NCBI GenBank assembly: GCA_007375735.1
Contig: VMEW01000001.1
Coordinates: forward strand, 11,831-75,830
Direction: 5' to 3'
DNA length: 64,000 nt
DNA from: Candidatus Peregrinibacteria bacterium Greene0416_19
GTDB taxonomy: Bacteria; Patescibacteriota; Gracilibacteria; Peribacterales; Peribacteraceae
Shown in pieces: positions 591 through 62,619 of the stretch. Below the pieces are notes generated by a model. The model was not told the DNA's origin and did no database searches. It saw only the letters and a program-made list of their open reading frames with translations. Position 1 is the stretch's first letter, and every line of letters starts with the position of its first letter. The position numbers were made by a program, and so were the translations under genes.

Positions 591-610
591 CCGGCATAGA
601 GTACATCCAA

Positions 611-642
611 ATTCTCAATTTTCAATTCTCAATTTTCAATTA
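611..642. repeat. tandem ATTCTCAATTTTCA words in the divergent rpmH/M16 promoter region
   Basis: ATTCTCAATTTTCA occurs at 611-624 and again at 625-638, followed by a partial third unit. Related ATTCTC(A/C)ATT words occur at 4779-4807, 10835-10893 and 31745-31755. Confidence 0.8.
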
Positions 643-7465: not shown

Positions 7466-7492
7466 GAGTTGTGAGCGTCGCGGCTGTTATAC

Positions 7493-7727
7493 ATGCCCCC
7501 TCCCCCGGCCCCTCCCCCTCGGCCTCGACCCTCTGGGGTCTCGGCCTGGGAGAGGGGAAGGTTAATCTTTCAATGCCGCACGGCGGAGCCGTGCTGCTGA
7601 TTGCAATAATGAACAATTGATCGTAGCAGCACGGCTCCGCCGTGCGGCATTCACCTACGCCTTGCCCTCTCCCAGGCCGTAGGCCCGCAGGCTGAGGCCG
7701 AGGGGGAGGGGTCGGGGGAGGGGGCAT
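7493..7727. repeat. 235-bp nested palindromic element (ATGCCCCC-terminus family)
   Basis: Outer 34-bp arms 7493-7526 / 7694-7727 have 1 mismatch. The middle arms contain CGGCCTGGGAGAGGG. Inner perfect 27-bp arms are 7572-7598 / 7625-7651. Confidence 0.9.
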
Positions 7728-7763
7728 GGAACAAGGCGGGCAAAAACTCGCTACAATCCTCAG

Positions 7764-10834: not shown

Positions 10835-10893
10835 ATTGAGAATTGAGAATTGAAAATTGAGCATTACATTCTCCATTCTCAATTCAGCATTCC
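10835..10893. repeat. AT-rich imperfect palindrome of ATTGAGAAT / ATTCTCNATT words
   Basis: ATTGAGAATTGAGAATTGAAAATTGAGCATTACATTCTCCATTCTCAATTCAGCATTCC. Same word family as 611-642 and 4779-4807. Confidence 0.75.
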
Positions 10894-11786: not shown

Positions 11787-11861
11787 GCCGCCCTAGCTCA
11801 GAGGTAGAGCACCTCCATGGTAAGGAGGGGGTCACGGGTTCAATTCCCGTGGGCGGCTCCA
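11787..11861 (+). tRNA. tRNA-Thr (anticodon GGU), CCA encoded
   Basis: Hand-folded cloverleaf. Acceptor GCCGCCC/GGGCGGC, D stem GCTC/GAGC and anticodon stem CCTCC/GGAGG with loop AUGGUAA. T arm ACGGG-TTCAATT-CCCGT, discriminator T, then CCA. Confidence 0.9.
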
Positions 11862-20835: not shown

Positions 20836-21978
20836 ATGCGAGCGCGGATCGTCATCCTGTCGGCATTCGCCACCCCCTACCGCAGCGGCGCGGAGGCGTG
20901 CGCGGAAGAGATCGCGAAGCGACTCCTGCCGCGCTACGACGTCACGATCGTGACGGCGCGAATGCGGAGGGATCTGCCGCGCTCCACGAAGATCGCCGGC
21001 GGCGTGCCGCTCCTGCGCGTCGGTATCGGGAGCGAGCGACTCGATCCGTGGCTCTTCCCGCTCCTCGCGCCGTTCCATGTCCGCCGGCTGCGGCCGGTCC
21101 TGATCCACGCGATCCTGGAGACGTTCGCGGGGTTGGCACTGCACTGGTGCGGATTCTTTTCGAAAAAATCCAAGCGGCTCCTCACGCTGCAGACGACCAA
21201 CCGCAGCTTTCTCAAGTCGACCATCCTGCGTTCGCCTGATGCCGTCACCGCCATCAGCTCCGCACTTGTCCGGTCCGGCAGGGAGCGCGGACGGACGGAC
21301 ATCGAACTCATCTCCAACGGCGTCGATCTCCCCGCACTCCGCCAGGCTTGTGAGCGGTACCCGAAGATGTCCGGGAGAATCCTCTTCGTCGGCAGGCTCG
21401 AGCCGATGAAGGGGATCGATATCCTCCTGCGCTCATGCGCCGAAATTTTCTCGGAACCGGGAGCCCGGGGCGTAAAGCCCACGTGGGGGCCACGCCCCCT
21501 TTACGGGGCTCCCGGTTGCATGGATGTGAGGATCGTCGGGGATGGCTCACAGCGCCGGTCGCTTGAAAAGCTGGCACATGGCCTGGGCGTCGCCGGGCAC
21601 GTGCAGTTCCTGGGCTACCTCCCTCCTGCCGCCGTCTGTCGCGAATTCGCGCAAGCGGAAATATTTTGCGGGCTCTCGATCAGCGAGGCGATGGGGAACG
21701 TGTTCCTGGAAGCACAGGCTGCTGGCTGCGCGGTCATCGGCACGCGCGTGGGCGGGATTCCGGACATCGTCAAGGATGGCGAAACGGGGCTCCTCATTCC
21801 CCCGAACGATGTGAATACCGCCGCATGGGCGCTCAAGGCGCTCCTCACCGACGCACATCTCCGCTCGCGGTTGCAGGAAGCGGCACGGCGACACGCGGAA
21901 GAATACGACTGGGATATCGTCGCCGGCAGGTATGCAACTGTGTATGATCGGCTGCTCCCATCAGTCGCTCATGCCTGA
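20836..21978 (+). CDS. GT4 glycosyltransferase carrying an in-frame palindromic insert
   Basis: E-x7-E region: LSISEAMGNVFLEAQAAGCAVIGTRVGGIPDIV. Residues ARGVKPTWGPRPLYGA are encoded by the repeat at 21466-21511. Confidence 0.85.
   Translation: MRARIVILSAFATPYRSGAEACAEEIAKRLLPRYDVTIVTARMRRDLPRSTKIAGGVPLLRVGIGSERLDPWLFPLLAPFHVRRLRPVLIHAILETFAGLALHWCGFFSKKSKRLLTLQTTNRSFLKSTILRSPDAVTAISSALVRSGRERGRTDIELISNGVDLPALRQACERYPKMSGRILFVGRLEPMKGIDILLRSCAEIFSEPGARGVKPTWGPRPLYGAPGCMDVRIVGDGSQRRSLEKLAHGLGVAGHVQFLGYLPPAAVCREFAQAEIFCGLSISEAMGNVFLEAQAAGCAVIGTRVGGIPDIVKDGETGLLIPPNDVNTAAWALKALLTDAHLRSRLQEAARRHAEEYDWDIVAGRYATVYDRLLPSVAHA
21466..21511 (+). repeat. 46-nt palindromic element, copy 1 (intragenic, in-frame)
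   Basis: CGGGGCGTAAAGCCCACGTGGGGGCCACGCCCCCTTTACGGGGCTC. The exact reverse complement is at 22759-22804. It contains the CCCACGTGGG palindrome and a GGGGCGT/ACGCCCC stem. Confidence 0.9.
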
Positions 21979-22351
21979 TATCCCCTCGCTCATCGAACGT
22001 TGGGATACGCAGATGAATCGACGGAGCGCGTCCGACGATTGTTTCCTCAACCACGACCATGCGGCGCGGGCACTCCTGACTCTACTCGAGGAGATGCTGG
22101 CGCATCCCGCCGCCGCCCGTGCATTCGTACTAGCCAAAGCCGAGCGGCTCATCGCACCGGACCGTTTGCTGTTTTTCGCGACCGCCGTCGCTGCGGAGCT
22201 GTTTTCAATCTACGTCAGACTCCATGCCACCTTTCACGAAGATCCTCTCACGCATGACGACCTTGCCGCCGCCGCACGAGCTCTGCTGCCCGGAACAGAC
22301 TCTCAAACGTCCCCGCATCCATCCATTCCTCCCGCAGCACCGTTGCCTTGA
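21971..22351 (+). CDS. hypothetical helical protein (uncertain)
   Basis: The ORF has GC-rich third positions over its first two thirds. Its last ~100 nt overlap the convergent nucleotidyltransferase gene. Start uncertain (21932/21944/21971). Confidence 0.3.
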   Translation: MPDIPSLIERWDTQMNRRSASDDCFLNHDHAARALLTLLEEMLAHPAAARAFVLAKAERLIAPDRLLFFATAVAAELFSIYVRLHATFHEDPLTHDDLAAAARALLPGTDSQTSPHPSIPPAAPLP

Positions 22352-23003
22352 GTGCCCCGCGTTCCAGGTATGCCCTGCTTACATCCGTGATCTCGATCTC
22401 TCCACGAGGCGATGGCGGGAGCTTCCGGATGATATCGAAGCAATGTTTATCGTACACGTAGCATCCTGTCACTGCGAGATCGCTCTTGGGTTTCGTCGGT
22501 TTTTCTTCAATGGATATGATGCGATTGCCCTCCATCTCCGCCACGCCAAACCGTTCAGGGTCCGTCACTTGCTTGATGAACACATGGCCGCCTGCTTCGA
22601 ATGACTTGATGACCGGTGACAGATCATCGAAATACACGTTGTCTCCCAGGATGGCGCAGACGCTGTCGTTGTCGGCGAACTCTTCGGCGAGACCCAGTGC
22701 CTGTGCGATGCCGCCGGGCTTCTCCTGCACTTTGAAGGCGAACTCGCAGCCGAAGCGCGAGCCCCGTAAAGGGGGCGTGGCCCCCACGTGGGCTTTACGC
22801 CCCGACCCCAGGAACCGCGCGATCTGCTCCATATGCTCGGTGCCGGTCACCACCGCGATTTCCCGGATGCCCGCGGAGAGCAGCACCTGGAGCGGGTACT
22901 CGATGAGAGGCTTGTCATAGACCGGGAGCAGGCTCTTATTGGTGATCTCGGTCAGGGGCTTCAGCCGGGTGCCGGTGCCGCCGCAAATGAGGACTCCTTT
23001 CAT
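22248..23003 (-). CDS. sugar-1-phosphate nucleotidyltransferase (RmlA-like, short form) carrying an in-frame palindromic insert
   Basis: MKGVLICGGTGTRLKPLT (GxGTRL), VQEKPGGIAQAL and WMDAGT motifs. Residues GRKAHVGATPPLRGS are encoded by the repeat at 22759-22804. Confidence 0.85.
   Translation of the reverse strand: MKGVLICGGTGTRLKPLTEITNKSLLPVYDKPLIEYPLQVLLSAGIREIAVVTGTEHMEQIARFLGSGRKAHVGATPPLRGSRFGCEFAFKVQEKPGGIAQALGLAEEFADNDSVCAILGDNVYFDDLSPVIKSFEAGGHVFIKQVTDPERFGVAEMEGNRIISIEEKPTKPKSDLAVTGCYVYDKHCFDIIRKLPPSPRGEIEITDVSRAYLERGALKATVLREEWMDAGTFESLFRAAELVRRRQGRHA
22759..22804 (-). repeat. 46-nt palindromic element, copy 2 (intragenic, in-frame)
   Basis: GAGCCCCGTAAAGGGGGCGTGGCCCCCACGTGGGCTTTACGCCCCG is the reverse complement of 21466-21511. 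Confidence 0.9.
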
Positions 23004-23006
23004 AAA

Positions 23007-23140
23007 GATTCAGGGGATTCAGGAGAAGCAGGAGATTCAGGAGAAATAGTAGTAGAATCCAGCTCCGGCGTATAATCATATCATTCTCCTGAATCCCCTG
23101 AATCTCCCGCTTCTCCTGAATCTCCCGCTTCTCCTGAATC
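23007..23140. promoter_or_regulatory. divergent control region with inverted arrays of CCTGAATC words
   Basis: Three GATTCAGG words at 23007-23045 and four CCTGAATC words at 23084-23140. TAGAAT (23053-23058) and TATAAT (23071-23076) lie between the arrays. Confidence 0.6.
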
Positions 23141-26047: not shown

Positions 26048-27193
26048 ATGAAACTTCTGATGGTCTCCGGCGACCGATCGCTGATGGAAGGCAAAAAAAG
26101 CGCCTTCTGGTACACGCTGGAGGAGCTGCACAGGCACTGGGACAGGATTGATGTTATCTGTCCCCGTCCTGCCCTCACATTCCCTCTGCCGCGGCGTGGA
26201 GAAGGGAGTGGAGAGCCGGAGTTCCAGAATGTCTTTCTCCATCCGTCCCCGTGGGGACTCATACGCCAGCCTCGATGGATTCTGCAGAAAGGCCGCGAGC
26301 TCATCGTCGAACAGCATCACGATGTGATGACCGTGCATGAATATCCTCCTTTTTATAACGGACTGGGCGCCTCACGACTTCATCGTGCGACCGGCATTCC
26401 GTACGCGCTCGAAATTCATCACATCATCGGATATCCGGCGGCATCGTCGATGAGCGAATTCGTCGGGCACGTGTTGTCGCAGATCTATTTCCGGTATGGT
26501 GTTACACGGCCTGCCGCTGTGCGCGTGGTCAATGAGGAGGTGAAGGGTGTGCTCACGAGGTGGGGGGTCCCGGCAGAAAAGATTCATGTGGTACATTCGG
26601 CGTACCTCGATCATGCATTGCATGGGAGCCCGATAGTCCCGGAGAGCGACAAACAATATGATGTCGTGTTCGCCGGACGACTCGTCGCGAACAAAGGATT
26701 ACCAGAGGTCATCGATGCGATGTCCGGTCTTTCAGATGCAACATTGCTCATCATTGGGGATGGCCCTCTGCGCGCACAGGCGGAAGCCCGGGTGCGGGCC
26801 CTCGGGATGCAGAGCAGGGTGTCGTTCCGGGGGTGGCTGCCGGAGCAGCGGGATGTGGCGGAAGCCGTTCGATCGGCCAGGCTATTCGTGATGAACTCGA
26901 AGAGCGAAGGCGGGCCGCGGGTGGCGCTGGAGGCGATGGCGATGGGGATACCGGTGATTGTGACGCGGGTGGGGCTGATGCCGGAGGTGGTGCATGACGG
27001 GGTGAACGGTGTGTTCACCGATGGGACACCGGGGGATCTCCGGAAAAAGATTGAACATCTGTTGCATCATGAAAGTGTCAGGCAAGAGATTGGGATGGAG
27101 GCTCAGAAGATTCTTGAGAAATTTGAGAGGGTGCATTTGATTAAAGAATATGCGGAATTTTTAAAGGTTGTAGCTGGTTCTCACCGCGGGTAG
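26048..27193 (+). CDS. GT4 glycosyltransferase
   Basis: MNSKSEGGPRVALEAMAMGIPVIVTRVG. Its stop codon lies inside a REP (27184-27206). Confidence 0.85.
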   Translation: MKLLMVSGDRSLMEGKKSAFWYTLEELHRHWDRIDVICPRPALTFPLPRRGEGSGEPEFQNVFLHPSPWGLIRQPRWILQKGRELIVEQHHDVMTVHEYPPFYNGLGASRLHRATGIPYALEIHHIIGYPAASSMSEFVGHVLSQIYFRYGVTRPAAVRVVNEEVKGVLTRWGVPAEKIHVVHSAYLDHALHGSPIVPESDKQYDVVFAGRLVANKGLPEVIDAMSGLSDATLLIIGDGPLRAQAEARVRALGMQSRVSFRGWLPEQRDVAEAVRSARLFVMNSKSEGGPRVALEAMAMGIPVIVTRVGLMPEVVHDGVNGVFTDGTPGDLRKKIEHLLHHESVRQEIGMEAQKILEKFERVHLIKEYAEFLKVVAGSHRG

Positions 27194-39657: not shown

Positions 39658-40473
39658 CTATCCATTTTTTCTCAACACCGCCACGGTCGTCACCCCTTTC
39701 CTGTAAGGTTTCGCTTTCCTCTGTAGAACCTTAACCAATCGCTTCGCCTCCCCCGCGTAGATTGTCTTCAGTATCGCATTGATCGGTGCAGGCGGCATCG
39801 TCACGTCCGTCCCTCCCTCGCCGGACGATGATCCCTTGATGCGGTTGATCATCCGCTGCACCTTCGCGAGTGGGTAGAGCCGGCTCATGCAGTGTGACAT
39901 CAACAGTTCCTCGACCGGCGTACCGGTCCAAAGTTTTCTGAACGTGTCCGGCTCATATCGCCGGTAGTGCTCGAAAGCCACATCATGCGGGCTCCAGAGG
40001 GACATGTCGGCGGGGGCCATCATGATGAGAAAGGCACCCGGCTTCATGTGCTCGATCAGCTCATGGACGAACGCGACGTCATTCTCGATGTGTTCGAGCA
40101 CTTCGATGAGCAGGATGCCGTCGGCTTTCGCAAAATCTTCCGCAACGTCCTTCGGCGCGTAGCCATGGACGAAGGTGCAGTGCGGAAAACGTCCGCGGGC
40201 GCGGTTGAAGCCGTCCTCCGTCGGTTCCACGCCGATGACGCGATACTCCCGTGACAGGTATGCCGTGACACCGCCAGTGCCGCAGCCCACGTCGATCAGC
40301 AGTCGGGATTCGCGTAAAGCGACGTGGTCGCCACGCGACTTTACGTCGTAATCCCGGACCGATGACGGCGGCAGAAGTTCGTGCAACAGTGCATCCAGAA
40401 TCGCGCGGCGGCCCAGGAACCACCAGTGGTGCTCCTCGCAGGCGGCGTGAACGTCAAATTGTGGAGTTTGCAT
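39658..40473 (-). CDS. class I SAM-dependent methyltransferase
   Basis: Motif I LIDVGCGTGGVT and post-I/II segments (ILLIEVLEH). Confidence 0.85.
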   Translation of the reverse strand: MQTPQFDVHAACEEHHWWFLGRRAILDALLHELLPPSSVRDYDVKSRGDHVALRESRLLIDVGCGTGGVTAYLSREYRVIGVEPTEDGFNRARGRFPHCTFVHGYAPKDVAEDFAKADGILLIEVLEHIENDVAFVHELIEHMKPGAFLIMMAPADMSLWSPHDVAFEHYRRYEPDTFRKLWTGTPVEELLMSHCMSRLYPLAKVQRMINRIKGSSSGEGGTDVTMPPAPINAILKTIYAGEAKRLVKVLQRKAKPYRKGVTTVAVLRKNG

Positions 40474-40479
40474 ATGGTG

Positions 40480-41490
40480 TCAGAACATCCGGTTGGTCCA
40501 CGTCTTGGGTGTTTTGTCGGAAATGATCTCGATGTCGAAGGTGTACTTGAATTTCTTCGTTCCGCGCTTCCGGATCCAGTCGATCATCTCCTGCAGGCCC
40601 TGGCGCAGCGTGTAGGTCGTTTTGTAGCCGAGGAGCCTCCGGGCTTTGCCGGCGTCACACGTCGCGAGCTTCACCTCCTGCGGGCGGCCGGGGACGTAGA
40701 CGGGGTCCAGCTTGAATGACAGAAGATCGGCAATCGTCTGCGCGAGCTCATTGATCGTGATAAATTCCTCATCCGGTCCGATGTTGATGACTTCCCCCGC
40801 CACGTTCGGCGCGTCGATGAGTTTTTCAAGAATCTGGATGTCATCTTGTACGAAGCTGAAGCAGCGCTTCTGCTCGCCGTCGCCGTAGATGATCGGCTGG
40901 CGGCCCTGGAGCATCAGGTTGATCATGATGCTTGCCACGTTGCGGTACGGGTCATCGTACTTCTGACGCGGTCCGATGATGTTGTGCGGGACAGCGATGA
41001 CATACTCCATGCTGTGCACGTCTGCGAGGTTCCTCAGCAAATCCTCCCCGGCGAGCTTGGCGATGCCGTAGGGATCCTGCGGCTTGCAGATCATGTCCTC
41101 GGTGAACGGTACCTTCTCCTGCGTGCCGTAGCGCGCCATGCTCGAGCAGTAGACGAACCGGCGCACTCCGGAGGCGATGGCCGCGCTGATCACCGACGCG
41201 GAAATCTGAAATGTGTTCTGCGTGACAAGATTCGGCGCGAAGACCGACAGTCCCTCGTACGCGGTGGCGGCGCAGTGGTAGACGGTGTCCACCCCTTGCA
41301 TCACCTTCTTCATGGAGTTCAGGTACTTGCAGTCGTACTGGTAGAACTCCACTTCATCCGGAACGTTGTCTAGGTAGCCGCCGATCAAGTTATCGCAGCC
41401 GACCACGCCGTACCCGAGTTCCAGGCAGCGTTCGGCCAGGTGACTGCCCAGGAACCCCGCGACGCCGGTGATGAAAATCTTCCTACCCAT
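40480..41490 (-). CDS. NAD-dependent sugar epimerase/dehydratase (SDR)
   Basis: ITGVAGFLGSHL and YGIAKLAGE (YxxxK) motifs. ATG 41490 overlaps the upstream GT4 stop by 8 nt. Confidence 0.85.
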   Translation of the reverse strand: MGRKIFITGVAGFLGSHLAERCLELGYGVVGCDNLIGGYLDNVPDEVEFYQYDCKYLNSMKKVMQGVDTVYHCAATAYEGLSVFAPNLVTQNTFQISASVISAAIASGVRRFVYCSSMARYGTQEKVPFTEDMICKPQDPYGIAKLAGEDLLRNLADVHSMEYVIAVPHNIIGPRQKYDDPYRNVASIMINLMLQGRQPIIYGDGEQKRCFSFVQDDIQILEKLIDAPNVAGEVINIGPDEEFITINELAQTIADLLSFKLDPVYVPGRPQEVKLATCDAGKARRLLGYKTTYTLRQGLQEMIDWIRKRGTKKFKYTFDIEIISDKTPKTWTNRMF

Positions 41491-42610
41491 AGGTTTCAAG
41501 CCATTCGGTGAGTGAAGCCACGATTGTACGTGGCTGGAACTGCGCCTGCGAGAGGCGCAAGCCGCCTTCGCCGATCTTTTTCCGGAGCTGTTCATCGTTC
41601 CTGAGTGTCAGAATAGCCTCCGCAAGCGCATGCGGATCGCCCGACGTCACCAGGAACGAATCCTGACCGTGCCGGAACACTCGCTCAGATGCTGGTGTCC
41701 GGCCGGTGACAAGCGGTCGGCCGCACGCGATCACTTCATACGCTTTATTCGGGATCACGCGAGCGGCTTTGCCGCTCGCGCCGAAGATCCCCAGGCAGAT
41801 GTCCGCGCCGTTCACGAATGCGGGGAGCTCCGTCATCGTCAGCGTGCCTAAGAACTGGACGTTCCGGAGACCCAGCTCGTCGGCGAGCCTCCGCATCGCC
41901 GGATAGGTCTGGCCTTTGCCGGCGAGTTCAAACGTCACATTCTCGCCGCGATCCTGCAACTCCTTGGCTGCAAGAAGAATCGTATCGATACCTTGCAGGG
42001 GGATGAAGGTGCCGTGGAAGCGGATGGTGAACTGCGTCTGTTCCTGCTTTTGATTGTCCCAGCCCCCACCCCCCGGCCCCCTCCCCCGCGGGGGGAGGGG
42101 GAGGAACAAATCAGTACGGCAGCCGATCGGGAGGACCAGAATTTTTTCCGGCGTCAGACCGAACGTGTCGACGAAGTATCGCTTGTGCTCTTCCGTATCG
42201 AGCAGGACAACGGTCGCAAGGTGACATGCGAGCCAGTCGGTGAACCACAGGAACCACGCGTGCGGCGACCATCGGGAAACCCGTTTGCGATCGTGCACTT
42301 CCGTATCGTAGAGCGAGAGGAATGCATCGAGGATGACGGGAATGCCCTCGCGACGTCCGAGCCGCCATGCAAGAAGCATCAAATAGTGGCCCAGGAACGG
42401 AACGTAGATTGCATCAGGTTTGGCTGGCATCGCGTTCCATCTCCGTCCCAGATCGGTGTACTTCGCAAAGAGTCCCTCCGCTTCCGTCCGGCAGAGAGTC
42501 ACCTCGCAGCCTCTTTCGCCGAGCCCGGTGCGGATGACCCACGAACGGGCTCCTTCGAGGTCAAAGTGACCGAAGGCAACGATGCGCTTGGTTGTCGACG
42601 GGGATTCCAT
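41483..42610 (-). CDS. GT4-like glycosyltransferase carrying an in-frame G/C-hairpin insert
   Basis: GT-B architecture. GGAGG lies 9 nt upstream of ATG 42610. Residues PLPPRGRGPGGGGW are encoded by the repeat at 42058-42104, in the inter-domain linker. Confidence 0.8.
   Translation of the reverse strand: MESPSTTKRIVAFGHFDLEGARSWVIRTGLGERGCEVTLCRTEAEGLFAKYTDLGRRWNAMPAKPDAIYVPFLGHYLMLLAWRLGRREGIPVILDAFLSLYDTEVHDRKRVSRWSPHAWFLWFTDWLACHLATVVLLDTEEHKRYFVDTFGLTPEKILVLPIGCRTDLFLPLPPRGRGPGGGGWDNQKQEQTQFTIRFHGTFIPLQGIDTILLAAKELQDRGENVTFELAGKGQTYPAMRRLADELGLRNVQFLGTLTMTELPAFVNGADICLGIFGASGKAARVIPNKAYEVIACGRPLVTGRTPASERVFRHGQDSFLVTSGDPHALAEAILTLRNDEQLRKKIGEGGLRLSQAQFQPRTIVASLTEWLETYG
42058..42104. repeat. 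G/C-hairpin element inside a coding sequence
   Basis: CCCAGCCCCCACCCCCCGGCCCCCTCCCCCGCGGGGGGAGGGGGAGG. Near-identical (3 mismatches by eye over ~40 nt) to the intergenic copy at 44870-44911. Confidence 0.85.
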
Positions 42611-42676
42611 AGACTATTCCTCCAGATCGTACCCTGATCCTAGCCCTTGCCCCAGCCCTGACCCTACAATCCCCGC

Positions 42677-43837
42677 ATGCGCATCGCCTACGTCACCCAT
42701 ACTCGCTTCCCCACCGAAAAGGCGCACGGCATGCAGGTGGCGCAGGTGTGCCATGCTCTGTCGCGCCTGGGACACCAGGTGACGCTCGTGACGCCGACGG
42801 TAGAAAATTCAATTCACGAGGATCCGCACGCGTACTACGGTTTGCCTCATTCGTTCGATGTTCTCACACTCGAGCACTTCGACGCGCGCACGTCGCCGTG
42901 GGTGCCCGGCTTCCTCCACTTCCGCGTGTCGATGCGCGCCTACCGGCGGGAACTTGCAAGATACTTCGCATCCGAGAAGCCCGATCTGATCTACGCGCGC
43001 TCGCCGCTCCTGCTCAGCGAACTCCTCGCGACAGGTGTTCCGGTCATTCTGGAGCTCCACTCACTCCCGCGCGTCGGACGGTGGATATTCGTCAGGAATT
43101 GTCATCGCTGTCGGAGCGTCGTGTGCCTCACATCGCTCCTCAAACATGAACTGCAGTCATGGGGCGTGAAGGAGGAGAACACCATCGTCGAAGGCGATGC
43201 GGTCGATCTGGATCGTTTCCGCGATCCGGTGCCGCTCTACGAGGCGAAGGAACAGTGGAAACTCCCGCGCACTGCGCCCGTCATCGCCTACGTCGGCACA
43301 CTCGTCACGCAGAATACGATCGAGAAGGGGGTTCCGGAGCTCATCGAAGCGTTTGTCCTCCTGCAGAAGAAAGGTATCAAGTTCTTCGGCTGGATTGTCG
43401 GCGGGCCGCACGAGTGGGTCGAGACGTACAAAGCTCGCGCCAAAGAACTCGGCATCGATGCGCACATCCGCTTCGAAGGCGCCATCCGCGTGGAGAAGGT
43501 TCCCTCGGCCCTCAGCGCAGTCGACGTGTGCGTCTACCCCGCGCCGCGCTCCGCTCATCCGTACTTCACCCGCGACACCTCCCCGCTCAAGCTCTTCGAG
43601 TACATGGCCGCCGAAAAGCCGATCGTATGCGCGGATCTGCCGCCGCTGCGCGACGTCGTCGATGAGAAGCTCGTGGAGTTCTGCGAGCCGGGAGATGCGC
43701 AGTCGCTCGCGCATGCGATCGGGAAAGTTCTCAAAAACCCGGATGCCGCGCGTGAGAAGGCACGGCGGGCGTTCCTGGCGATGGGGGGGCGGACGTGGGA
43801 GAAGCGGATGAAGAGAATCCTGGATGCGGCCTCATGA
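42677..43837 (+). CDS. GT4 glycosyltransferase
   Basis: MRIAYVTHTRFPTEKAHG N-terminus and SPLKLFEYMAAEKPIVCADLPPL. ATG lies 6 nt after TACAAT 42665-42670. Confidence 0.85.
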   Translation: MRIAYVTHTRFPTEKAHGMQVAQVCHALSRLGHQVTLVTPTVENSIHEDPHAYYGLPHSFDVLTLEHFDARTSPWVPGFLHFRVSMRAYRRELARYFASEKPDLIYARSPLLLSELLATGVPVILELHSLPRVGRWIFVRNCHRCRSVVCLTSLLKHELQSWGVKEENTIVEGDAVDLDRFRDPVPLYEAKEQWKLPRTAPVIAYVGTLVTQNTIEKGVPELIEAFVLLQKKGIKFFGWIVGGPHEWVETYKARAKELGIDAHIRFEGAIRVEKVPSALSAVDVCVYPAPRSAHPYFTRDTSPLKLFEYMAAEKPIVCADLPPLRDVVDEKLVEFCEPGDAQSLAHAIGKVLKNPDAAREKARRAFLAMGGRTWEKRMKRILDAAS

Positions 43838-43889
43838 TAAATCAAGGAGGCTCCGAAGAGCCCCCTTTTCCCGACGTCAGGCGTCGGTG

Positions 43890-44219
43890 TTACTGCTCCT
43901 TCTCCGGCCAGTCCTCGATGCGCAGGTCGTTACCTTCGCCCTGGATGCACCGAAGGGCCACCATCTGTACAAGATCGTTGATCTCCAGATCTCCGAGGAA
44001 CATCCCGGGAGCGCGGATGGTAGGCATCCCTTTGATGATCCCCAGATTGACTCCTTTCTGAATGATCCGTACGGGGATCGTGTACACCTCGGGCTCTTCC
44101 ATCGCCGCAGCGAATTGGAGGAAACCGACCGGATCGTACGTCATCAACTCCCGGAGCTTGAAGACGATTGCCTGACCCATCGTGCGCGCGGGTCGCTGAG
44201 CCCTCGCCGCTTTTTTCAT
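43890..44219 (-). CDS. hypothetical protein
   Basis: GC-rich third positions. Start uncertain (ATG 44219 or 44279). No family recognised. Confidence 0.45.
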   Translation of the reverse strand: MKKAARAQRPARTMGQAIVFKLRELMTYDPVGFLQFAAAMEEPEVYTIPVRIIQKGVNLGIIKGMPTIRAPGMFLGDLEINDLVQMVALRCIQGEGNDLRIEDWPEKEQ

Positions 44220-44393
44220 CGAGGCCTTCTTCGGAGTCGTCACGACATGTCTCCTTGAAAAGAGCAGATTCCCAGCCATCCATGACCGGGATTCTGCAAA
44301 AACAGGAACCCAGCATCCAGACTGGATGTATACAGTACAATTTCAATTAATTTAGTCAATACAACACTGCGTCGTCCCGGACAGCGTTTTCGT

Positions 44394-44810
44394 ATGATGC
44401 GACGCATGGAAGGCGTTCTGTCGGTTACCAAAGGCTCCGATGTCTACGCCCTGTTCGTCGATGCCTCCCTGCCGGTGGAGGGTCACCACTTCGTCACCGA
44501 CAATGCGGCGGAATTCCAGGTCGGACTGTTCCAGCGCCCCGCCGGACACGCCGTGAAGCCGCACATGCATCCGCGGCGCGCGCAGACCATTCAGGGCGTG
44601 ACGGAGTTCGTGTATATAAAAGAAGGGAAGGTCCGGGTGAAGGTTTTCGACGAGGAGTGGAACGAACTCGCCGTCTACGAAGCCGGGGCCGGACATTTTT
44701 TCGTCTTCTTCCGCGGCGGACATGCGATTGACATGCTGGAGCCGACACGGTTTATAGAAGTGAAGCAGGGGCCGTATCCGGGGGATAAGGTGGCGAAGGT
44801 GTTTCAGTGA
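44394..44810 (+). CDS. cupin-fold protein (possible sugar keto-isomerase/epimerase)
   Basis: 138 aa with a His-rich cupin motif (GHAVKPHMHP ... GGHAIDM). Located upstream of the DegT aminotransferase. The specific activity is not recognised. Confidence 0.6.
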   Translation: MMRRMEGVLSVTKGSDVYALFVDASLPVEGHHFVTDNAAEFQVGLFQRPAGHAVKPHMHPRRAQTIQGVTEFVYIKEGKVRVKVFDEEWNELAVYEAGAGHFFVFFRGGHAIDMLEPTRFIEVKQGPYPGDKVAKVFQ

Positions 44811-44869
44811 GTGGTCTGCATTCATATCTATTGTGGCATTCCAGCCCCCCCCTGCCATTTAAACAAGTA

Positions 44870-44980
44870 GCCCCCACCCCCCGACCCCCTCCCCCGACGG
44901 GGGAGGGGGAGAACGTCAGAAAGAGCATTGATATCGTCCCCCCTTCCCCCATCGGGGGAAGGGGCAGGGGGATGGGGGCT
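44870..44980. repeat. two adjacent G/C hairpin repeats
   Basis: GCCCCCACCCCCCGACCCCCTCCCCCGACGGGGGAGGGGGAG at 44870-44911, and TCCCCCCCTTCCCCCATCGGGGGAAGGGGCAGGGGGATGGGGGC at 44937-44980. Confidence 0.85.
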
Positions 44981-45030
44981 GATTGCTTCAATGGGGATGG
45001 GGGCTGAAAAACCTGTGCTACTCTTGCCCC

Positions 45031-48316: not shown

Positions 48317-48435
48317 GTGCCCCCTCCCTGCGTCCCTCCCCTCGCTTCGCTGGGGGAGGGAAAGAAATATTTTCTTTGCTTACCTTCCCTCTCCCAGGCC
48401 GAAGGCCGAGGGGGAGGGACGCAGGGAGGGGGCAT
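48317..48435. repeat. 119-bp palindromic element (ATGCCCCC-terminus family)
   Basis: GCCCCCTCCCTGCGTCCCTCCCCTCG (left arm) pairs with CGAGGGGGAGGGACGCAGGGAGGGGGC (right arm). The inner word CCCTCTCCCAGGCCG is shared with 7665-7680. Confidence 0.85.
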
Positions 48436-48535
48436 GTTTCCACGCCGCCAGACTTCGAAAAACCCTCCCCGTCGACTCGACCTTTTCCCCTTCGCTACGC
48501 CCAAAGAGTATAGTGGCTAGAGTATTTTCCCCGCT

Positions 48536-50074
48536 ATGCGTCGCTCCATCTCCATCGCACTCCTCACCCTCCTCCCGGCATCAGCCGCCTTCGCCGCGTT
48601 TCCAGATGTTCCATCCGAGTATCCGTATGCGGAGGGGATCGCCTACGTCCAAGAGCAGAACATCGTATCCGGCTATCCGGACGGGACGTACCTCCCCAAC
48701 CGCATGGTCAACCGGGCGGAGTTCACCAAGATCATCATTGCATCCCGCTATGCAAAACCAGCCATCGATGCCTGTCTGCGGCAACACCCGGATGCCCTCC
48801 GCTTCCGGGACGTGCCGGTGGGGAGCTGGTATGCGCCGTTCCTGTGCATGGCGGTGACGGGGAAGATCATTGGCGGTTACCCCGACGGCACCTTCCGCGG
48901 CGCCGGCACCATCAACTTCGCAGAAGCAGCCAAGATCTTCGCAGGCGGTTTCGCGCTCAGGACCGATGACAGCCTGGGCACCGTGTACGGCGAATCGGTG
49001 TGGTACCGGCCGTCCACCATGAAGTTGGCCCAAATGGACGCGATCCCTTCGACGGTCGACCGGAATGATCACCCCGTCACGCGGGGCGAGATGGCGGAAA
49101 TGATCTACCGACTGCAGACGGGGCAGAAGTCCACACCCTCCGAATCGTCGCGCACGGTGAGCGACCCCGCGGGATTCTCCTTCACGTACCCTGCCGACAT
49201 TTTTCTGGTTGTTCCCTCCTCCGATACCGTGGCAGTGGGAGCCGATGTGAGCAAGGAGCGGAAGGTGAATGGTATCCGCCTTGTCCACGCGGCGCCGGTG
49301 GAGCATTGCGATCTGTCGGGATTGCCGGAGCACTGCACGCCGCTCACGCGGGACAGCACGATCGGCTTCTTCGTGGTGCCGGAATTCTACTCGGTTCTCA
49401 AGAACTTGGCACAGCCCTGGCAGCGCGAAACCGAAATGCAGGTCGGCGGCGTCACCGGATTCACCTTCACGTCGGGCGCCGAGGGGGAGGGAAACGTCTA
49501 CATCTTCCTGCCGCTCACCGACCGCAGCACACTCATGATCGTGCGCTCGTTCATCAGCGAGGACACGAATTTGGCATACAAGGGCGTAAGCGGTTTCCTG
49601 CCGATCGCGGAGCAGGAGAAGGTCAGCAAGCAGGTACTGGACTCCCTCACCCTCCAGAGCGCCCCGGCGGGTGCCACAACGCAGGTGAAGCTCTTCTTCT
49701 TCAGTGAGAAGGATCGCAAAGAGGCGACCTACCAGGCGAGTTTTCCCGTGACCCGCACCACCCCCAAATCGGAGCGTATTGCCGATGCCGCGCTCCGGCT
49801 CCTCTTCGCCGGGCCAACGACAGACGAACAGAATCAGGGCGCCCGGACCATGCCGGAACTGTCCGCACTCGCATCGCCCTACATCAGCGTCTCCGTGAAG
49901 GACGGCACCGCGTACGTGAATTTCCACAAGGAGGCGCTGGAGCACCTGAACGCGGTCGCCGGCATCCAGCATATGGTCAAGGCGCCGATTGAGGCCACGC
50001 TCAAGCAGTTCCCGACGATCAAGCAGGTGCAGTATGCGATTGATGGGAAGGTGTATACGGAGTGGGGGGCCTAG
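48536..50074 (+). CDS. secreted cell-wall protein with three SLH repeats and a C-terminal GerMN domain
   Basis: Signal peptide (LLTLLPASAAFA). SLH repeats begin FPDVPSEYPYAEGIAYV, FRDVPVGSWYAPF and VWYRPST. The C-terminus LLFAGPTTDEQNQG...VNFHKE...IDGKVY is GerMN-like. Confidence 0.8.
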   Translation: MRRSISIALLTLLPASAAFAAFPDVPSEYPYAEGIAYVQEQNIVSGYPDGTYLPNRMVNRAEFTKIIIASRYAKPAIDACLRQHPDALRFRDVPVGSWYAPFLCMAVTGKIIGGYPDGTFRGAGTINFAEAAKIFAGGFALRTDDSLGTVYGESVWYRPSTMKLAQMDAIPSTVDRNDHPVTRGEMAEMIYRLQTGQKSTPSESSRTVSDPAGFSFTYPADIFLVVPSSDTVAVGADVSKERKVNGIRLVHAAPVEHCDLSGLPEHCTPLTRDSTIGFFVVPEFYSVLKNLAQPWQRETEMQVGGVTGFTFTSGAEGEGNVYIFLPLTDRSTLMIVRSFISEDTNLAYKGVSGFLPIAEQEKVSKQVLDSLTLQSAPAGATTQVKLFFFSEKDRKEATYQASFPVTRTTPKSERIADAALRLLFAGPTTDEQNQGARTMPELSALASPYISVSVKDGTAYVNFHKEALEHLNAVAGIQHMVKAPIEATLKQFPTIKQVQYAIDGKVYTEWGA

Positions 50075-50156
50075 GGGGCGTTCCACACCAAGATGGAACG
50101 GACATTTTGATGTACCCAAGCCAAGAATCTTCGTTGTTCAACAAATAAAGAACCCC

Positions 50157-50691
50157 GAGAGCGGGTTTTCTACCCGCGGATGGCGAAGGATAACGGCATG
50201 TCCCAACGCCACCCGACCCAAAACGATTGTGTCATGTTCGTGACGACGAACGTGGCCCGTCGCCTGCCCCTCTTCGCCGATCCGGCCTGTGCCCGCGAAG
50301 CAGTCGAGACACTCTATCGTGTCCAGGCGATGTATCCGTTCTTCCTCTTCGGCTTTGTCATTATGCCGGATCATTGCCATCTTCTCCTGAAGGTTCCACC
50401 ACCAGCAGAAATTTCGAGCATCATTGGTTCCTATAAGCGGGCCGTCAGCCACAATCTCGTCCGCGGTCCCATATGGCAGCCACGATTCCATATGAAGATT
50501 CCGGGCGATTGCTATGCAGCGCTGAGATACATTCACCTGAATTCCGTGAGGGCGAAATTGACCGAGAATCCGGAGGAGTACCTGTGGTCATCAGCATCGG
50601 GGCGGTGGGACGTGCAGAGCTTAGAAGGCCCGTAGGGACATGGCGCGGGTGGAATCTTGCACCTTACAACCGCGGGTAGAAAACCCGCTCT
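50157..50691. mobile_element. RAYT cassette: Y1 transposase gene flanked by inverted REPs
   Basis: GAGAGCGGGTTTTCTACCCGCGG (50157-50179) and CCGCGGGTAGAAAACCCGCTCT (50670-50691) are inverted copies bracketing the ORF. Each unit is a GCGGGT/ACCCGC hairpin. Confidence 0.85.
50180..50635 (+). CDS. REP-associated tyrosine transposase (IS200/IS605 Y1 family)
   Basis: HUH motif in VIMPDHCHLLL and catalytic Tyr context ALRYIHLNSVRAKL...EEYLWSS. Confidence 0.85.
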   Translation: MAKDNGMSQRHPTQNDCVMFVTTNVARRLPLFADPACAREAVETLYRVQAMYPFFLFGFVIMPDHCHLLLKVPPPAEISSIIGSYKRAVSHNLVRGPIWQPRFHMKIPGDCYAALRYIHLNSVRAKLTENPEEYLWSSASGRWDVQSLEGP

Positions 50692-50718
50692 TAGATATAT
50701 TTGTTATTTGATTATTTT

Positions 50719-54055: not shown

Positions 54056-54082
54056 GAGTGTGAGACTACCATTTCTAGGCCC

Positions 54083-54253
54083 ATGCCCCCACCCCCGACC
54101 CCTCCCCCTCCCTCCGGTCGGGAGAGGGGAGAGACGTCTGAGGTGTATTCCCACAGCTTCACAAAGATTATGGAGAGAAGCAGGATGCCTTCTTCCTGAA
54201 TGGAGCTCCCCTCTCCCGACGATAGGAGGGGGAGGGGTCGGGGGTGGGGGCAT
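54083..54253. repeat. 171-bp palindromic element (ATGCCCCC-terminus family) in a divergent promoter region
   Basis: Perfect 29-bp arms ATGCCCCCACCCCCGACCCCTCCCCCTCC (54083-54111) / 54225-54253. Inner 14-bp arms 54118-54131 / 54206-54219. Confidence 0.9.
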
Positions 54254-54320
54254 GAATCAGGAGATCACAACCTTCGATCGACGCTTGTGCTTGGGCAAGT
54301 CGCTCTCCATACTTTCCCCA

Positions 54321-59123: not shown

Positions 59124-60764
59124 TCAGTGGGATGCGAGGTAATCCTCGTCCTGCGATCGCAGTACCCAGTCGCGGAAGGCGCGCAAGTCCGGCGCCGCGG
59201 CAAGATCGGGGAGCGATGCTGCGCGGAGGATCACGTTCTGATCGAGGGGATGGCCGAGTTTGCTGAACGATGACTGCACCATCTCCCACGTATGGAACGT
59301 GAGGGGACGGAGCCGGAAGAGCGCGTGCGCATGACGGCGGGCGAGCGTGGTTTCCTCCGGCGTCAGGAGCGGAATATCCTCGATACGCCGAAGCTTTTCC
59401 AGATATTCCTGCGATGAAGCAGAATCATTCGTGAAGCCCAGGCCCGAATAGCGCCCCGTGCCGGCCGTCAGGACCGGGATGCCGAAGCACGGTGCCTCGA
59501 TGCCGATGGTGCCGCGCACCGTGATGCAGTAGTCGGTGATCGCGAAGAAGCTGTAGGTGCTGATGTCGGTGTCCGGCGCAACGACCGTGATGTGGGGCGG
59601 CAGCGTAGCGAAATTGGCGTCGAGCGCGATGACATCGCGCGGCTGGGCCGTAATCCCGAGCTGTTTCATCTTCCATACGTAATCAGGGTGCAGCTTGATC
59701 ACCCAGTTGACCCGGTCGTTGCCGCAGGCGACCTTCACCGTCTCGATGAGCCATTTCTCGTAGTCTTCAAACAGGTTCGTGCCGTAGAAGAACGTCGCAT
59801 CCCAGAGGACGTGTGAAAAGATGACGACCGTCTTCTTCGCGGGGTCCAGACCGAGCTGCGACCGCACCGCGTCTGGGTTCTTCAACTTCTTCCCCTCCAA
59901 GAGGAATTTCCGGTTGAACCACGTGCCCTCGGCGTAGGACCGGCGGAGTTCGGCTATGAACGATTCCTCTGTCTCTGCGGTCCATGGCAAGCGCTTGATC
60001 CGCTCCCAGGCGGACGGCGATACCGATGCGGCATGCACGTCGGCGTTTTCCAACGTGTATCGCTTGAGAAACATCGAATCGCGCGTATGTGCGTGCACGT
60101 ACTGGATGCAGGGACAGCCGTGCGCGAGCGCGGCGTCGAACACTTCGGCGTAGGGGGAGTACCCCTTTTCCAGAAATAATACGACGTCGGTATGCTCTGC
60201 ATCGAAGAACGCGTGCGCGGCTTCCGCAGCCTGAAATGAGCGCGGGAGCAGCCCCCGCAGAAGCTGCTGTGCCTCCGGATCGTCGAACGCAACACTCCCC
60301 TGGCGCAGCCTGCGGACGATGGTCGAGAGCGTGTGCTTTCCCACCCGCACGCCACGATGCGTGCAGCGCATGAATTCGTGGAACGTCGATGAGCGCAGGG
60401 CGGCTTCCAGACGATCCTGTGGGACCCGCGAGGCATGCTGATCCATGAGATCATCGAGGAACACGAATTGATCGATGCCCATTGACCGGAAGTACAGTTG
60501 TGCCCGTTTGTTCGTCCGGTCGGTCAGCACCGTGATTGCGGATCCATCCAACTCAAGCGCCTTGCCGAACACGCCTTCCATCTTCACCTGAGCGACCCAG
60601 TCGGTCAGGCTCACGATCAGGATCTTCTTCCCATTTCCAGCGGACCGGGATTGGTGGAGAAAGAAGACTTTCCATCGGAAGGACAGATAATCCCACAGCA
60701 CCGCCAGGTCGTCCGCCAGGCGCCGCCGGTCGAACAGCCGGCCGAAACGCCGGATGACGCTCAT
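59124..60764 (-). CDS. GT-B-like protein resembling capsule-synthesis (KpsS/KpsC, Capsule_synth) enzymes
   Basis: 546 aa. KKILIVSL N-terminal domain. C-terminal domain with VIFSHVLWD, WVIKLHPDY and ITVRGTIGIEAPCFGIPVL. Its ATG overlaps the neuA stop (ATGA). Family assignment from motif memory only. Confidence 0.5.
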   Translation of the reverse strand: MSVIRRFGRLFDRRRLADDLAVLWDYLSFRWKVFFLHQSRSAGNGKKILIVSLTDWVAQVKMEGVFGKALELDGSAITVLTDRTNKRAQLYFRSMGIDQFVFLDDLMDQHASRVPQDRLEAALRSSTFHEFMRCTHRGVRVGKHTLSTIVRRLRQGSVAFDDPEAQQLLRGLLPRSFQAAEAAHAFFDAEHTDVVLFLEKGYSPYAEVFDAALAHGCPCIQYVHAHTRDSMFLKRYTLENADVHAASVSPSAWERIKRLPWTAETEESFIAELRRSYAEGTWFNRKFLLEGKKLKNPDAVRSQLGLDPAKKTVVIFSHVLWDATFFYGTNLFEDYEKWLIETVKVACGNDRVNWVIKLHPDYVWKMKQLGITAQPRDVIALDANFATLPPHITVVAPDTDISTYSFFAITDYCITVRGTIGIEAPCFGIPVLTAGTGRYSGLGFTNDSASSQEYLEKLRRIEDIPLLTPEETTLARRHAHALFRLRPLTFHTWEMVQSSFSKLGHPLDQNVILRAASLPDLAAAPDLRAFRDWVLRSQDEDYLASH

Positions 60765-61447
60765 CGTTGCCGCAGAAGGAACTCCGCGTAGGCCAGGTCG
60801 TCCGGGCCGTCGATATCGACCGAACTGCGCGCGTCCATCACGAAGGGGATCGAGCGGTCTCCGTAGAGCGTTCCCGCTTCGATCACTGTCCGCCGCACGA
60901 TCAAGATCGCCGGACCGTTGCGCGCGTAGAATCGTTCCTTGTCCTGTCTCCGGAGGACCAGGGGGCCCTCGGAGAGCGGCGCGAGCAGTCCGTCCTTCAG
61001 TTGCATGAGCGAAGTCGGGCTGAAGCGGTGCGGCACCTCCGTCACGCTCACGACGGTGTCGACGTTCTTCTTTTCAAAGAGAGTGAGTGCCGCATCGATG
61101 TGTGCCGTCGTCCGTAGCGGAGAGGTCGGTTGTAGGAGAGCGATTGCATCGGGAACGTACCCCTCGATCCGATCGAGTTCACTCAGAATGTGCTGGAGGA
61201 CAGGCAGGATGGGCGTTGCGTCTTCGGCAAGATTCGCCGGTCGCAGGAAAGGGCATGGCACCCCGAGTGATGCGCCCAGCGCCGCAATTGCCGGATCATC
61301 GGTCGAGAGGATGGCGCGTCCGAGCACGCTCCCAGCCGCAGCCTCGCACGTGTGGGCCATGAGCGGCTTCTCGCCGAGCGGTGCCACGTTCTTATTGGGG
61401 ATGCCCTTCGAGCCGCTGCGCGCGGGGATGATGCCCAGGATTTCCAT
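60761..61447 (-). CDS. neuA: acylneuraminate (nonulosonate) cytidylyltransferase
   Basis: GIIPARSGSKGIPNKN N-terminal motif. 228 aa. Confidence 0.85.
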   Translation of the reverse strand: MEILGIIPARSGSKGIPNKNVAPLGEKPLMAHTCEAAAGSVLGRAILSTDDPAIAALGASLGVPCPFLRPANLAEDATPILPVLQHILSELDRIEGYVPDAIALLQPTSPLRTTAHIDAALTLFEKKNVDTVVSVTEVPHRFSPTSLMQLKDGLLAPLSEGPLVLRRQDKERFYARNGPAILIVRRTVIEAGTLYGDRSIPFVMDARSSVDIDGPDDLAYAEFLLRQR

Positions 61448-61453
61448 AGTCGG

Positions 61454-62608
61454 TCAGTAGGTCAGTTGCTTCTGTACGGAGAGAGTCGCCGTGGAGAGGA
61501 TGTCCGCGATCTTTTCGCCAGCCGTTCCGTCCCCGTAGAGTGTGTCCGGCTCGTACGGGCCGTGCGCCAGCTGCTTTTTCACCGCCGAGACGATCGCCGC
61601 GTGATCGTGACCGGCATCCAGGATATTCGCTCCCCGGTCACGCCCGGTCTGGCGTGTGCCGACGTTCACGACCGGCACCCCCAGGAAGCTCCCCTCGCGG
61701 ATGGCGGCGCTGGAGTTGCCCACCATGCAGGCGCAGTGGCGCATGATGGGGATGAAGGTTTCCACCGGCAGATTCTTGTAGAAGCGTATGTAGCTGTCGT
61801 CTTTGTGTTCGCGGAAGATGCGGATGCCCTGCGCAATGTCTTCCGATCCGGCGTCGGCATTGGGCCAGAAGAAGATGGTGGGGATGTGTAACTCCTCGAT
61901 TGCCTTGAGCGTTTCTTCAATCTGGTCGCGGCCCTGCCCGTACTCGGTGGTGACCGGGTGCTGCATCACGAGCAGGTAGGGCTTGCGGAAGTCGATACCT
62001 CCTCCCACCCCCTCCTGAAGGAGCAGCGGCAGTGACGCCGGATCGGAGTGCAGCCGCGCCACCTCCGCCACCAGGTCCATCCGCGGGCAGCCCACCACGT
62101 GCACCCGCTTCGGATCCTCCCCCATGCGGATGATGCGATCGGCGGCCCGGTCGTTGGATGGGAAGTGCAACTGGGCCAGCTTGGTGACCGCATGTCGGAT
62201 GCTCTCGTCGATGGTGCCGCTCACCTCGCCCCCCATCGTGTGGGCGAGGGGGATGTTCATGTACGCCGCGGCCACCGCGGTCGCCATCGTCTCGAAGCGG
62301 TCGCCCACCGTCACCACCGCGTCCGGCCGCAAGCGGTCGAATACCCGCGCGAGCTCGATCAGCCCTAGCCCGGTCGACTGCGCCATCGTCAGCGGTGTCT
62401 CGCCCTCGATCAGCATGTGCACCCGCTCGTCGGGGGCAAAGCCGTCTTTCTCCATGAATTTGACCACCGATCCATACCGGTCGAGCAGGGCCGATGCGCC
62501 AACCACCACCTGGAGCGCGAGATCCGGATGCGCCTGTACCGCCCGCATCACGCTCTTGATGGAGCTGTAGTTTGCCCGTGAGCCGACGACGACGCAGATT
62601 GTGCGCAT
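61454..62608 (-). CDS. neuC: UDP-N-acetylglucosamine 2-epimerase (hydrolysing) type
   Basis: MRTICVVVGSRANYSSIKSV N-terminus, HTMGGEVSGTIDE and GNSSAAIREG motifs. Confidence 0.85.
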   Translation of the reverse strand: MRTICVVVGSRANYSSIKSVMRAVQAHPDLALQVVVGASALLDRYGSVVKFMEKDGFAPDERVHMLIEGETPLTMAQSTGLGLIELARVFDRLRPDAVVTVGDRFETMATAVAAAYMNIPLAHTMGGEVSGTIDESIRHAVTKLAQLHFPSNDRAADRIIRMGEDPKRVHVVGCPRMDLVAEVARLHSDPASLPLLLQEGVGGGIDFRKPYLLVMQHPVTTEYGQGRDQIEETLKAIEELHIPTIFFWPNADAGSEDIAQGIRIFREHKDDSYIRFYKNLPVETFIPIMRHCACMVGNSSAAIREGSFLGVPVVNVGTRQTGRDRGANILDAGHDHAAIVSAVKKQLAHGPYEPDTLYGDGTAGEKIADILSTATLSVQKQLTY

Positions 62609-62619
62609 AGGGAATTGGC

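Follow-up and report, generated by a model that had tools for sequence, protein, structure and literature searches.

The 64,000-nucleotide stretch of contig VMEW01000001.1 from Candidatus Peregrinibacteria bacterium Greene0416_19 that was analyzed here (the window) carries a glycan island at ~19 to 48 kb. This island holds several GT4, GT2, GT8, and PMT_2 genes, GtrA, and a nucleotidyl transferase, together with dehydratases, epimerases, a DegT aminotransferase, and methyltransferases. One of its genes for a glycosyltransferase of family 4 (GT4) contains a short, G/C-rich repeat unit within its reading frame, and this unit is our subject. The gene, the unit, and the related intergenic repeats are as follows:

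41483..42610, minus strand: intact GT4-family GT-B glycosyltransferase of 375 amino acids, followed by an epimerase gene, as in orthologous loci
42061..42103, minus strand: solo repeat unit inside this gene, with its triplex-motif core at 42064-42101
44869..44983: intergenic inverted pair, with units at 44872-44909 (G-rich strand minus) and 44940-44977 (G-rich strand plus)
7492..7728: intergenic inverted pair, with units at 7496-7557 and 7665-7724, long first loops, and CATG-tagged ends
48318..48441: more degenerate intergenic inverted pair, with units at 48320-48361 and 48386-48432, between divergent gene starts
54082..54254: intergenic inverted pair, with units at 54086-54129 and 54208-54250 and its outer 30 nt 100% complementary

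An original prediction had placed a 47-nt string, located at 42058-42104 of this minus-strand open reading frame, in the linker that joins the two Rossmann halves of the enzyme, and domain analysis agrees. The repeat unit encodes LPLPPRGRGPGGGGW, which corresponds to residues 170-184 of the GT4 protein and stands in the context TDLF-LPLPPRGRGPGGGGW-DNQ on the coding strand. Pfam matches the GT4 N-domain at residues 30-167 and the GT1 C-domain at residues 190-350; because these matches lie on either side of it, the encoded segment is the interdomain linker. An AlphaFold model built with a homolog alignment has a mean pLDDT of 95.3 and a pTM of 0.92, with low confidence confined to residues ~171-190 and values below 50 at residues 182-187 only. 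The top Foldseek matches are MshA, BshA, and PimA-type GT4 enzymes, which have the GT-B fold. The gene is therefore intact, and its extra residues are modeled as a disordered loop that connects the Rossmann halves. The closest homologs are labeled Candidatus Peribacteria, Peribacteraceae, or Peregrinibacteria, the top nonself match being 62% identical.

Read on the coding strand, the unit consists of a C-stem (CCCCCTCCCCCC), a GCG loop, a G-stem (GGGGAGGGGG), a CC(G) loop, and a second G-stem (GGGGGTGGGGG); by eye, the stems are 11 nt long and the loops 3 and 2 nt. Its G-rich strand is the sense strand of the GT4 gene, and no stop codon occurs across all six frames. The unit qualifies as a predicted triplex motif under ITxF-type criteria, which call for pyrimidine, purine, and reverse-Hoogsteen stems on one strand, stems of 6 to 15 nt with at most one mismatch, and loops of 1 to 6 nt. 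The earlier term "G/C hairpin" is right in that the sequence can form a hairpin, and yet it understates what is there: the unit has a three-block C-stem/G-stem/G-stem organization, which is the intrastrand-triplex architecture of BoxC/PIT/TM_ECO elements.

The nearest relative of the genic unit lies between called genes at 44869-44911, with 93% identity over 43 nt (40/43; 3 mismatches). This intergenic copy had been reported before with three mismatches; the count and the location hold, and the refinement is that the twin is one half, the left unit, of the inverted pair 44869-44983. When up to 3 mismatches are allowed, the core CCCCCTCCCCCNNNGGGGGAGGGGG is matched 3 times in the window and 0 times in 100 dinucleotide shuffles. 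Moreover, a three-block scan (stems of 9 nt, each with one mismatch at most, and a second loop of 1 to 6 nt) recovered 9 units in the window, namely, the four inverted intergenic pairs and the genic copy, versus 0 in 30 Markov-1 controls. A chance origin of the repeat copies is excluded. As in the triplex-repeat class, the units are multicopy, dispersed, intergenic, and often arranged as inverted pairs; the genic copy is the exception, being the sole solo unit and the sole coding unit among the nine. The pairs at 7492-7728, 48318-48441, and 54082-54254 have the same ends as the pair at 44869-44983. The window sits in contig k139_731739 of ENA ERZ27284380 (230,958 bp), from which flanking sequence was taken. 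No further units were found in the ~9.5 kb scanned past each window end, and the unit density over the 83 kb examined is ~0.11 per kb.

The pair at 44869-44983 folds as a single long hairpin (-91.6 and -105 kcal/mol per strand; z = -8 and -9.9), and the short-unit hairpin z-scores of -1.2 and -2.0 versus shuffles are not significant. We relied on family membership and not on fold energy because shuffles of such extreme composition fold equally well. The sense RNA of the genic unit is predicted to form a hairpin of -39.8 kcal/mol or, with G-quadruplexes enabled in ViennaRNA, a five-layer quadruplex of -69.9 kcal/mol. Also, the sense strand (G5-A-G5-CC-G6-T-G5) is a predicted G-quadruplex sequence by the criterion of at least four G-tracts of at least three G, with loops of 1 to 7 nt. 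Rfam at the gathering threshold returned no matching family, its sole match being a tRNA at 11787-11858; at permissive E-values, it returned merely generic microRNA-hairpin look-alikes, which we rejected. A literature search for the exact sequence strings gave no match, and the match to known biology came via the triplex literature.

Work by Holder et al. (2015, NAR; PMC4666352), in which the earlier studies of PIT elements by Hoyne and Maher are also treated, describes TM_ECO, formerly BoxC or PIT, by the pattern CCCTCNCCC-N3-6-GGGNGAGGG-N3-GGGNGAGGG, in which the second loop is TTA or CCG. Across 262 proteobacterial genomes, 3610 copies of TM_ECO are reported, and cyanobacteria also have many G/C-rich motifs (PMC4666352). 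In Escherichia coli MG1655 (4.6 Mb), there are 23 TM_ECO copies, "always located intergenically," with five inverted pairs; the elements have no transposon association and are associated with genomic instability (PMC4666352). A TM_ECO from the E. coli yagA-yagE spacer (L269, 302-336; CCCTCGCCCCTTTGGGGAGAGGGCCGGGGTGAGGG) aligns to the genic unit without gaps, and both have CCG as the second loop. The order of C-stem, 3- to 6-nt loop, G-stem, 2- to 3-nt loop, and second G-stem in mirror register is the same in the two systems, as are the multiple and mostly intergenic copies, the frequent close inverted pairs, the occurrence in many bacterial lineages, and the lack of a transposon link. The differences are that the stems here are 11 nt instead of 9, that the third block is interrupted by T instead of A, that first loops reach up to 30 nt in the paired copies (beyond the ITxF limit), and that the host belongs to Peregrinibacteria in the candidate phyla radiation. 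Units are also far denser here than at 23 per 4.6 Mb in MG1655, and one copy lies in a coding sequence. The strict TM_ECO expression recovers the E. coli control (at position 302 of L269) and no copy in the window, because the third stem has T for A and the stems are 11 nt long. Across phyla, the interruption in the outer block is A or T, never G or C, because A*A:T and T*A:T are allowed purine-motif triads (PMC4666352).

Comparison with homologs indicates that the unit is an addition to the protein. The linker, measured between anchor columns F169 and F198 in 119 aligned homologs, has 14 to 16 residues in 87 of them and 28 in the window protein, which is 12 to 14 residues above the mode; in the nearest relatives, P0003 and P0004, it has 17 to 18. 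The view that this is a mobile or recombining DNA unit, not conserved coding sequence, is thus borne out by the short linkers of most homologs, by the nine units in the window, and by the insert being the sole low-confidence part of the model. Orthologs that share the same linker DNA while having no repeat elsewhere, which would contradict that view, were not seen.

The same linker holds repeats in other Peribacteria too. Long-linker homologs for which DNA was fetched are syntenic with the window (GT4 and then epimerase, with a divergent GT4 upstream), and four of these orthologous loci (L121, L122, L123, and L124) have other palindromic inserts elsewhere in the linker. The insert of P0016 (L121, 10545-10597) reads CCCTTCCCCC-TCA-GGGGGAAGGG-TTA-GGGATGAGGG, with a second loop of the TTA type, and that of P0017 (L122, 5926-5978) contains GGGAGAGGG-CA-GGGAGAGGG, with a complementary C-arm ahead; both are positive in the triplex scan, and in both the G-rich strand is the sense strand. 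Another palindrome family (TGTCATGGTGAGC...GTCGAACC...), with stems of up to 23 bp, is present in frame in the linker of P0050 (and its sister P0057) and of the distant P0020. Its linker copies lie at L123 10502-10576 and L124 5452-5520, with further copies at L123 3397-3421 and L054 7893-7922. It encodes CHGE..RTMT...FDRA..D-type peptides, and the P0020 insertion is independent of that in P0050 and P0057. The nearest relatives of each insert-bearing protein have no inserts, and insertion points vary within the linker. In Peribacteria, this linker has been colonized repeatedly and independently, in at least five events from two repeat families. A tolerance filter would produce such a recurrence pattern, and sequence-specific targeting would not be expected to. 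The earlier suggestion of relaxed constraint on glycosyltransferase surface loops is supported.

The repeat type extends well beyond this genome. A strict 24-base pattern for the C-rich side matches at least 120 stretches in GTDB species genomes. Among the matches listed, most are in Longimicrobium and other Gemmatimonadota, and others are in Chloroflexota, Armatimonadota, Alphaproteobacteria, and two Peregrinibacteria. Nearly all of the 132 listed matches continue into a loop that is specific to the lineage and then a complementary G-arm, GGG(A/G)GAGGGG, neither of which is forced by the pattern. A stop-free-frame test for genic location in the 120 genome loci was passed by 71 of the 132 matches and is too noisy to be used in genomes of 65 to 70% G+C. 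From a sample of ten, three Chloroflexota loci from metagenome-assembled genomes (L030, L051, and L104) are candidates that read as real proteins, all three with Pfam domains. They carry in-frame copies with the C-rich strand as the sense strand (APTPGPSP...) and Pfam domains on both sides. In L030, the host gene encodes an ADP-forming acyl-CoA synthetase-like protein, whose Ligase_CoA and ATP-grasp domains flank the copy; the other two host genes encode a molybdenum hydroxylase and a CHAT protein. In-frame copies, therefore, occur in unrelated genes of other phyla. The strict pattern has 5 matches only in viral contigs and thus gives no sign of phage carriage. A loose C-tract pattern was swamped there by poly-C contig ends and (CCCCCG)n tracts, and the few loose matches that are followed by a hairpin have interruptions as in the strict pattern. 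A metagenome scan for the short-loop variant returned 17 loci, none from this genome. In metagenome Ga0256914 (L253, L255, L257, L261, L263, and L264), the unit heads a longer conserved repeat, ...ttgtcaagtatGCCCCCACCCCCGACCCCTCCCCC-NNN-GGGGGAGGGG-cgtgtttgtcaggtgtgtgtgcggcgcact, present in at least 6 copies; the triplex module is therefore reused within larger lineage-specific elements.

The coding behavior of the unit is reminiscent of Rickettsia palindromic elements (RPEs), which are not known to be G/C-tract triplex motifs. Both are dispersed palindromic repeats that sit in frame in unrelated genes, encode a fold-compatible peptide, and are missing from orthologs, and the genic unit is an in-frame family member at a structurally permissive site in the manner of an RPE. 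In the account of Ogata et al. (2000, 2002) given in PMC10969869, RPEs are ~100 to 150 bp long, restricted to Rickettsia, and characterized by a conserved peptide per family; nearly half of those of Rickettsia conorii are genic. Compared with RPEs by description only, the unit here is 43 nt, extremely G/C-rich, present in many phyla, and open in six frames, and 1 of 9 window copies is genic, against nearly half in R. conorii. Thus, the element type is already known from E. coli and its in-frame behavior from RPEs; the novelty lies in the host lineage, in a coding location for this element type, and in the repeated independent colonization of the same enzyme loops.

We propose, with a probability of about three in four, that the 43-nt sequence is a dispersed BoxC/PIT-type repeat unit that was copied into the GT4 coding sequence and persists there as a passenger, a piece of selfish or structure-prone DNA that a permissive loop tolerates. 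It belongs to the repeat family, has the three-block architecture, is absent from orthologs, and lies in the disordered loop of an intact gene. A DNA-level event would have copied the unit into the gene, and only an outcome that preserved the frame and lay in a permissive loop would have passed selection. Subsequently, the unit may have escaped removal by being free of stop codons in all six frames, leaving the net frame unchanged, and occupying a tolerant linker. The ~13 to 15 extra Pro/Gly/Arg residues, set in a length-variable disordered linker, would leave the GT-B fold undisturbed.

Several observations weigh against this proposal. No empty-site allele is available from a close relative, and because the best nonself homolog is 62% identical, the boundaries and the insertion event are deduced from distant orthologs. 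Since 43 nt is not a multiple of three, the event must include extra or lost bases. The flanks, on inspection, show no target-site duplication. Unrelated repeats flank the one transposase-like gene that the window contains, and no unit in the window matches the strict TM_ECO regular expression. Also, both the 11-bp stem and the triplex register of the genic copy are perfect, which fits either recent arrival or selection for structure. Finally, the G-rich strand is the sense strand in 3/3 triplex-type GT4-linker inserts, a bias that is not significant at n = 3 and that a pure-passenger model does not predict.

As for how the unit arrived, our tentative preference, at a little under even odds, is for replication-associated template switching or gene conversion at structure-prone sequence. 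This route is favored because the closest copy is 2.8 kb away, the genic unit equals half of a pair, and motifs of this kind reportedly cause polymerase stalling and are associated with rearrangement. Both copies have AAC just past the unit, a match too short to serve as evidence. Single-strand hairpin transposition by a Y1/RAYT-type enzyme is an unlikelier route, for which the window offers one such gene:

50180..50635: RAYT (REP-associated tyrosine transposase) of 151 amino acids, NCBIfam NF047646 at 84 bits (cutoff 80), Pfam Y1_Tnp

This gene sits between 45-nt inverted repeats (50138-50182 and 50667-50711) in the classic RAYT layout. A link to the repeat family was considered and rejected, as these flanking repeats are unrelated to the C5/G5 family and occur nowhere else in the window. 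The units resemble REP/REPIN elements and MITEs in being short, dispersed, hairpin-forming, nonautonomous, and often in inverted pairs, with a RAYT gene in the window. Nevertheless, they have no conserved terminal GTAG or CGTC tag, and membership in the REP/REPIN-RAYT class was rejected on this ground and because the RAYT flanks differ from the dispersed units. MITE membership was likewise rejected, there being no target-site duplication in the flanks and no insertion sequence with matching ends in the window. The inverted pairs have terminal inverted repeats, and the solo genic unit has none.

The alternative that survives best, although we consider it improbable, is that the unit is retained for a function, either as a predicted structure (RNA hairpin, G-quadruplex, or non-template-strand triplex) that causes a pause at the domain boundary or as an instability hotspot that diversifies surface loops of the enzymes of the glycan island. 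The perfect preservation of structure within a coding region, the predicted folds of the sense RNA, and the uniform strand orientation of the triplex-type linker inserts would all be accounted for. So would the recurrence of inserts at interdomain linkers, both in the GT4 orthologs and between Ligase_CoA and ATP-grasp in L030, and the tie between such motifs and genomic instability (Holder et al. 2015; PMC4666352). However, most orthologs do without any insert, insert positions and repeat families vary by lineage as a tolerance filter predicts, and the opposite orientation is found in frame in the second GT4 family described below and in the Chloroflexota genes. Purine-motif triplexes do not form in RNA (PMC4666352), and earlier tests of E. 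coli PIT elements, as far as they are cited in that paper, gave no promoter, terminator, or polymerase effects in vivo. A broader proposal, that in these reduced genomes the enzymes of glycan islands preferentially keep structure-forming repeats at their domain boundaries and in their surface loops because such repeats are useful, strikes us as quite unlikely. Such usefulness might come from transcription or translation pausing between domains, which would aid cotranslational folding or tune expression, or from local instability hotspots that would keep the loops of surface-glycan enzymes hypervariable.

Very improbable, in our judgment, is a native low-complexity linker, in which Pro, Gly, and Arg codons evolved in place and the likeness to the intergenic copy is convergent or the gene was the donor. 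Many ortholog linkers are indeed rich in Pro, Ser, and Gly, as in P0002 (LPAPASPSAGPRGP) and P0010 (PQPEPKTKPQPEP). Against this stand the near identity to the copy 2.8 kb away, at a level for which shuffles yield no chance matches, the occurrence of the three-block unit in many phyla and as 8 more intergenic copies in this window, and a linker well above the modal length.

The weakest alternative is an assembly artifact, in which the repeat was misjoined into the gene during metagenome assembly; we regard it as having almost no chance of being right, given an intact, in-frame gene, a second assembly by a different pipeline that is identical across the insert (its reads may or may not be independent), and analogous in-frame inserts in unrelated NCBI, ENA, JGI, and Logan assemblies. 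That second assembly is a Logan contig from SRR8863439 (4,571 bp), which is 100% identical to window 40328-44898 across the insert and its flanks on both sides. Assemblies are indeed broken by repeats in this region: the contig (L273) ends at 44898, inside the intergenic inverted pair, and the units are therefore assembly breakpoints. An insert-free allele was not found, the only other contig found (the Logan one) carrying the insert.

A shorter look-alike in another GT4 gene of the island had been put forward as an older insertion:

26181..26207, plus strand: candidate decayed unit in GT4 gene 26048..27193, in a hypervariable N-domain loop

The look-alike exists. On its own, it forms an imperfect hairpin (z = -1.5 versus shuffles), and its orientation relative to its gene is opposite to that of the copy at 42061. 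The loop from P39 to V62 of this second GT4 family is hypervariable, with 15 to 35 residues and one case of 75 among 79 homologs, and the window protein is typical in length. In the ortholog P0139 (L266), the same loop contains a scan-positive unit, and GGAGAAGGG(G)AGT is common to P0139 and the window. Because of this recognizable unit and the common sequence, reading 26181-26207 as a decayed old copy is plausible; the look-alike is weak by itself, and the window alone does not demonstrate decay. In P0153 (L267, 1175-1399), a 225-nt nested palindrome made of several triplex-type units (-139.8 kcal/mol) is read through in frame as the 75-residue loop. This loop is also rich in repeat-encoded-looking peptides across the family (ENGKWKMENE, NHELRIMNHE, and IENLKLKIEN), often palindrome-like. 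Simple repeats of the AATTCTCAATTTTCAAT type at window 610-640 and 10835-10865 would encode peptides similar to those of the loop.

These observations place BoxC/PIT-type repeats, which have been characterized experimentally only in E. coli, in bacteria of the candidate phyla radiation and in many phyla, and they show that such repeats, contrary to what had been assumed, can live in reading frames. The independent insertions of two families into one GT-B linker, taken with the hypervariable loop in a second GT4 family, map naturally where GT4 enzymes tolerate 10 to 75 extra residues, information that can be used in protein engineering and in reading odd Pro/Gly/Arg segments of metagenomic proteins. 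Since the units break assemblies and yield spurious "hypothetical protein" peptides, recognizing them betters annotation. If the functional reading were true, non-B DNA or RNA structure would be tied to domain-wise folding or to glycan diversification.

Other repeats and genes in the window merit mention. A different, 52-nt repeat has two inverted copies (21466-21517 and 22753-22804; 96% complementary), which lie within GT4 gene 20836..21978, where the Pfam GT1 match is interrupted, and within nucleotidyl transferase gene 22248..23003. Two inverted arrays of 9-nt tandem repeats (AGATTCAGG.../...CCTGAATCT) occupy 23006-23140, between the nucleotidyl transferase and dehydratase genes. A surface protein with SLH and Germane domains (48536-50074) adjoins the glycan island, and a NeuB/UDP-GlcNAc 2-epimerase/cytidylyltransferase trio of the nonulosonic-acid pathway lies at the right end of the window (60761-63627).

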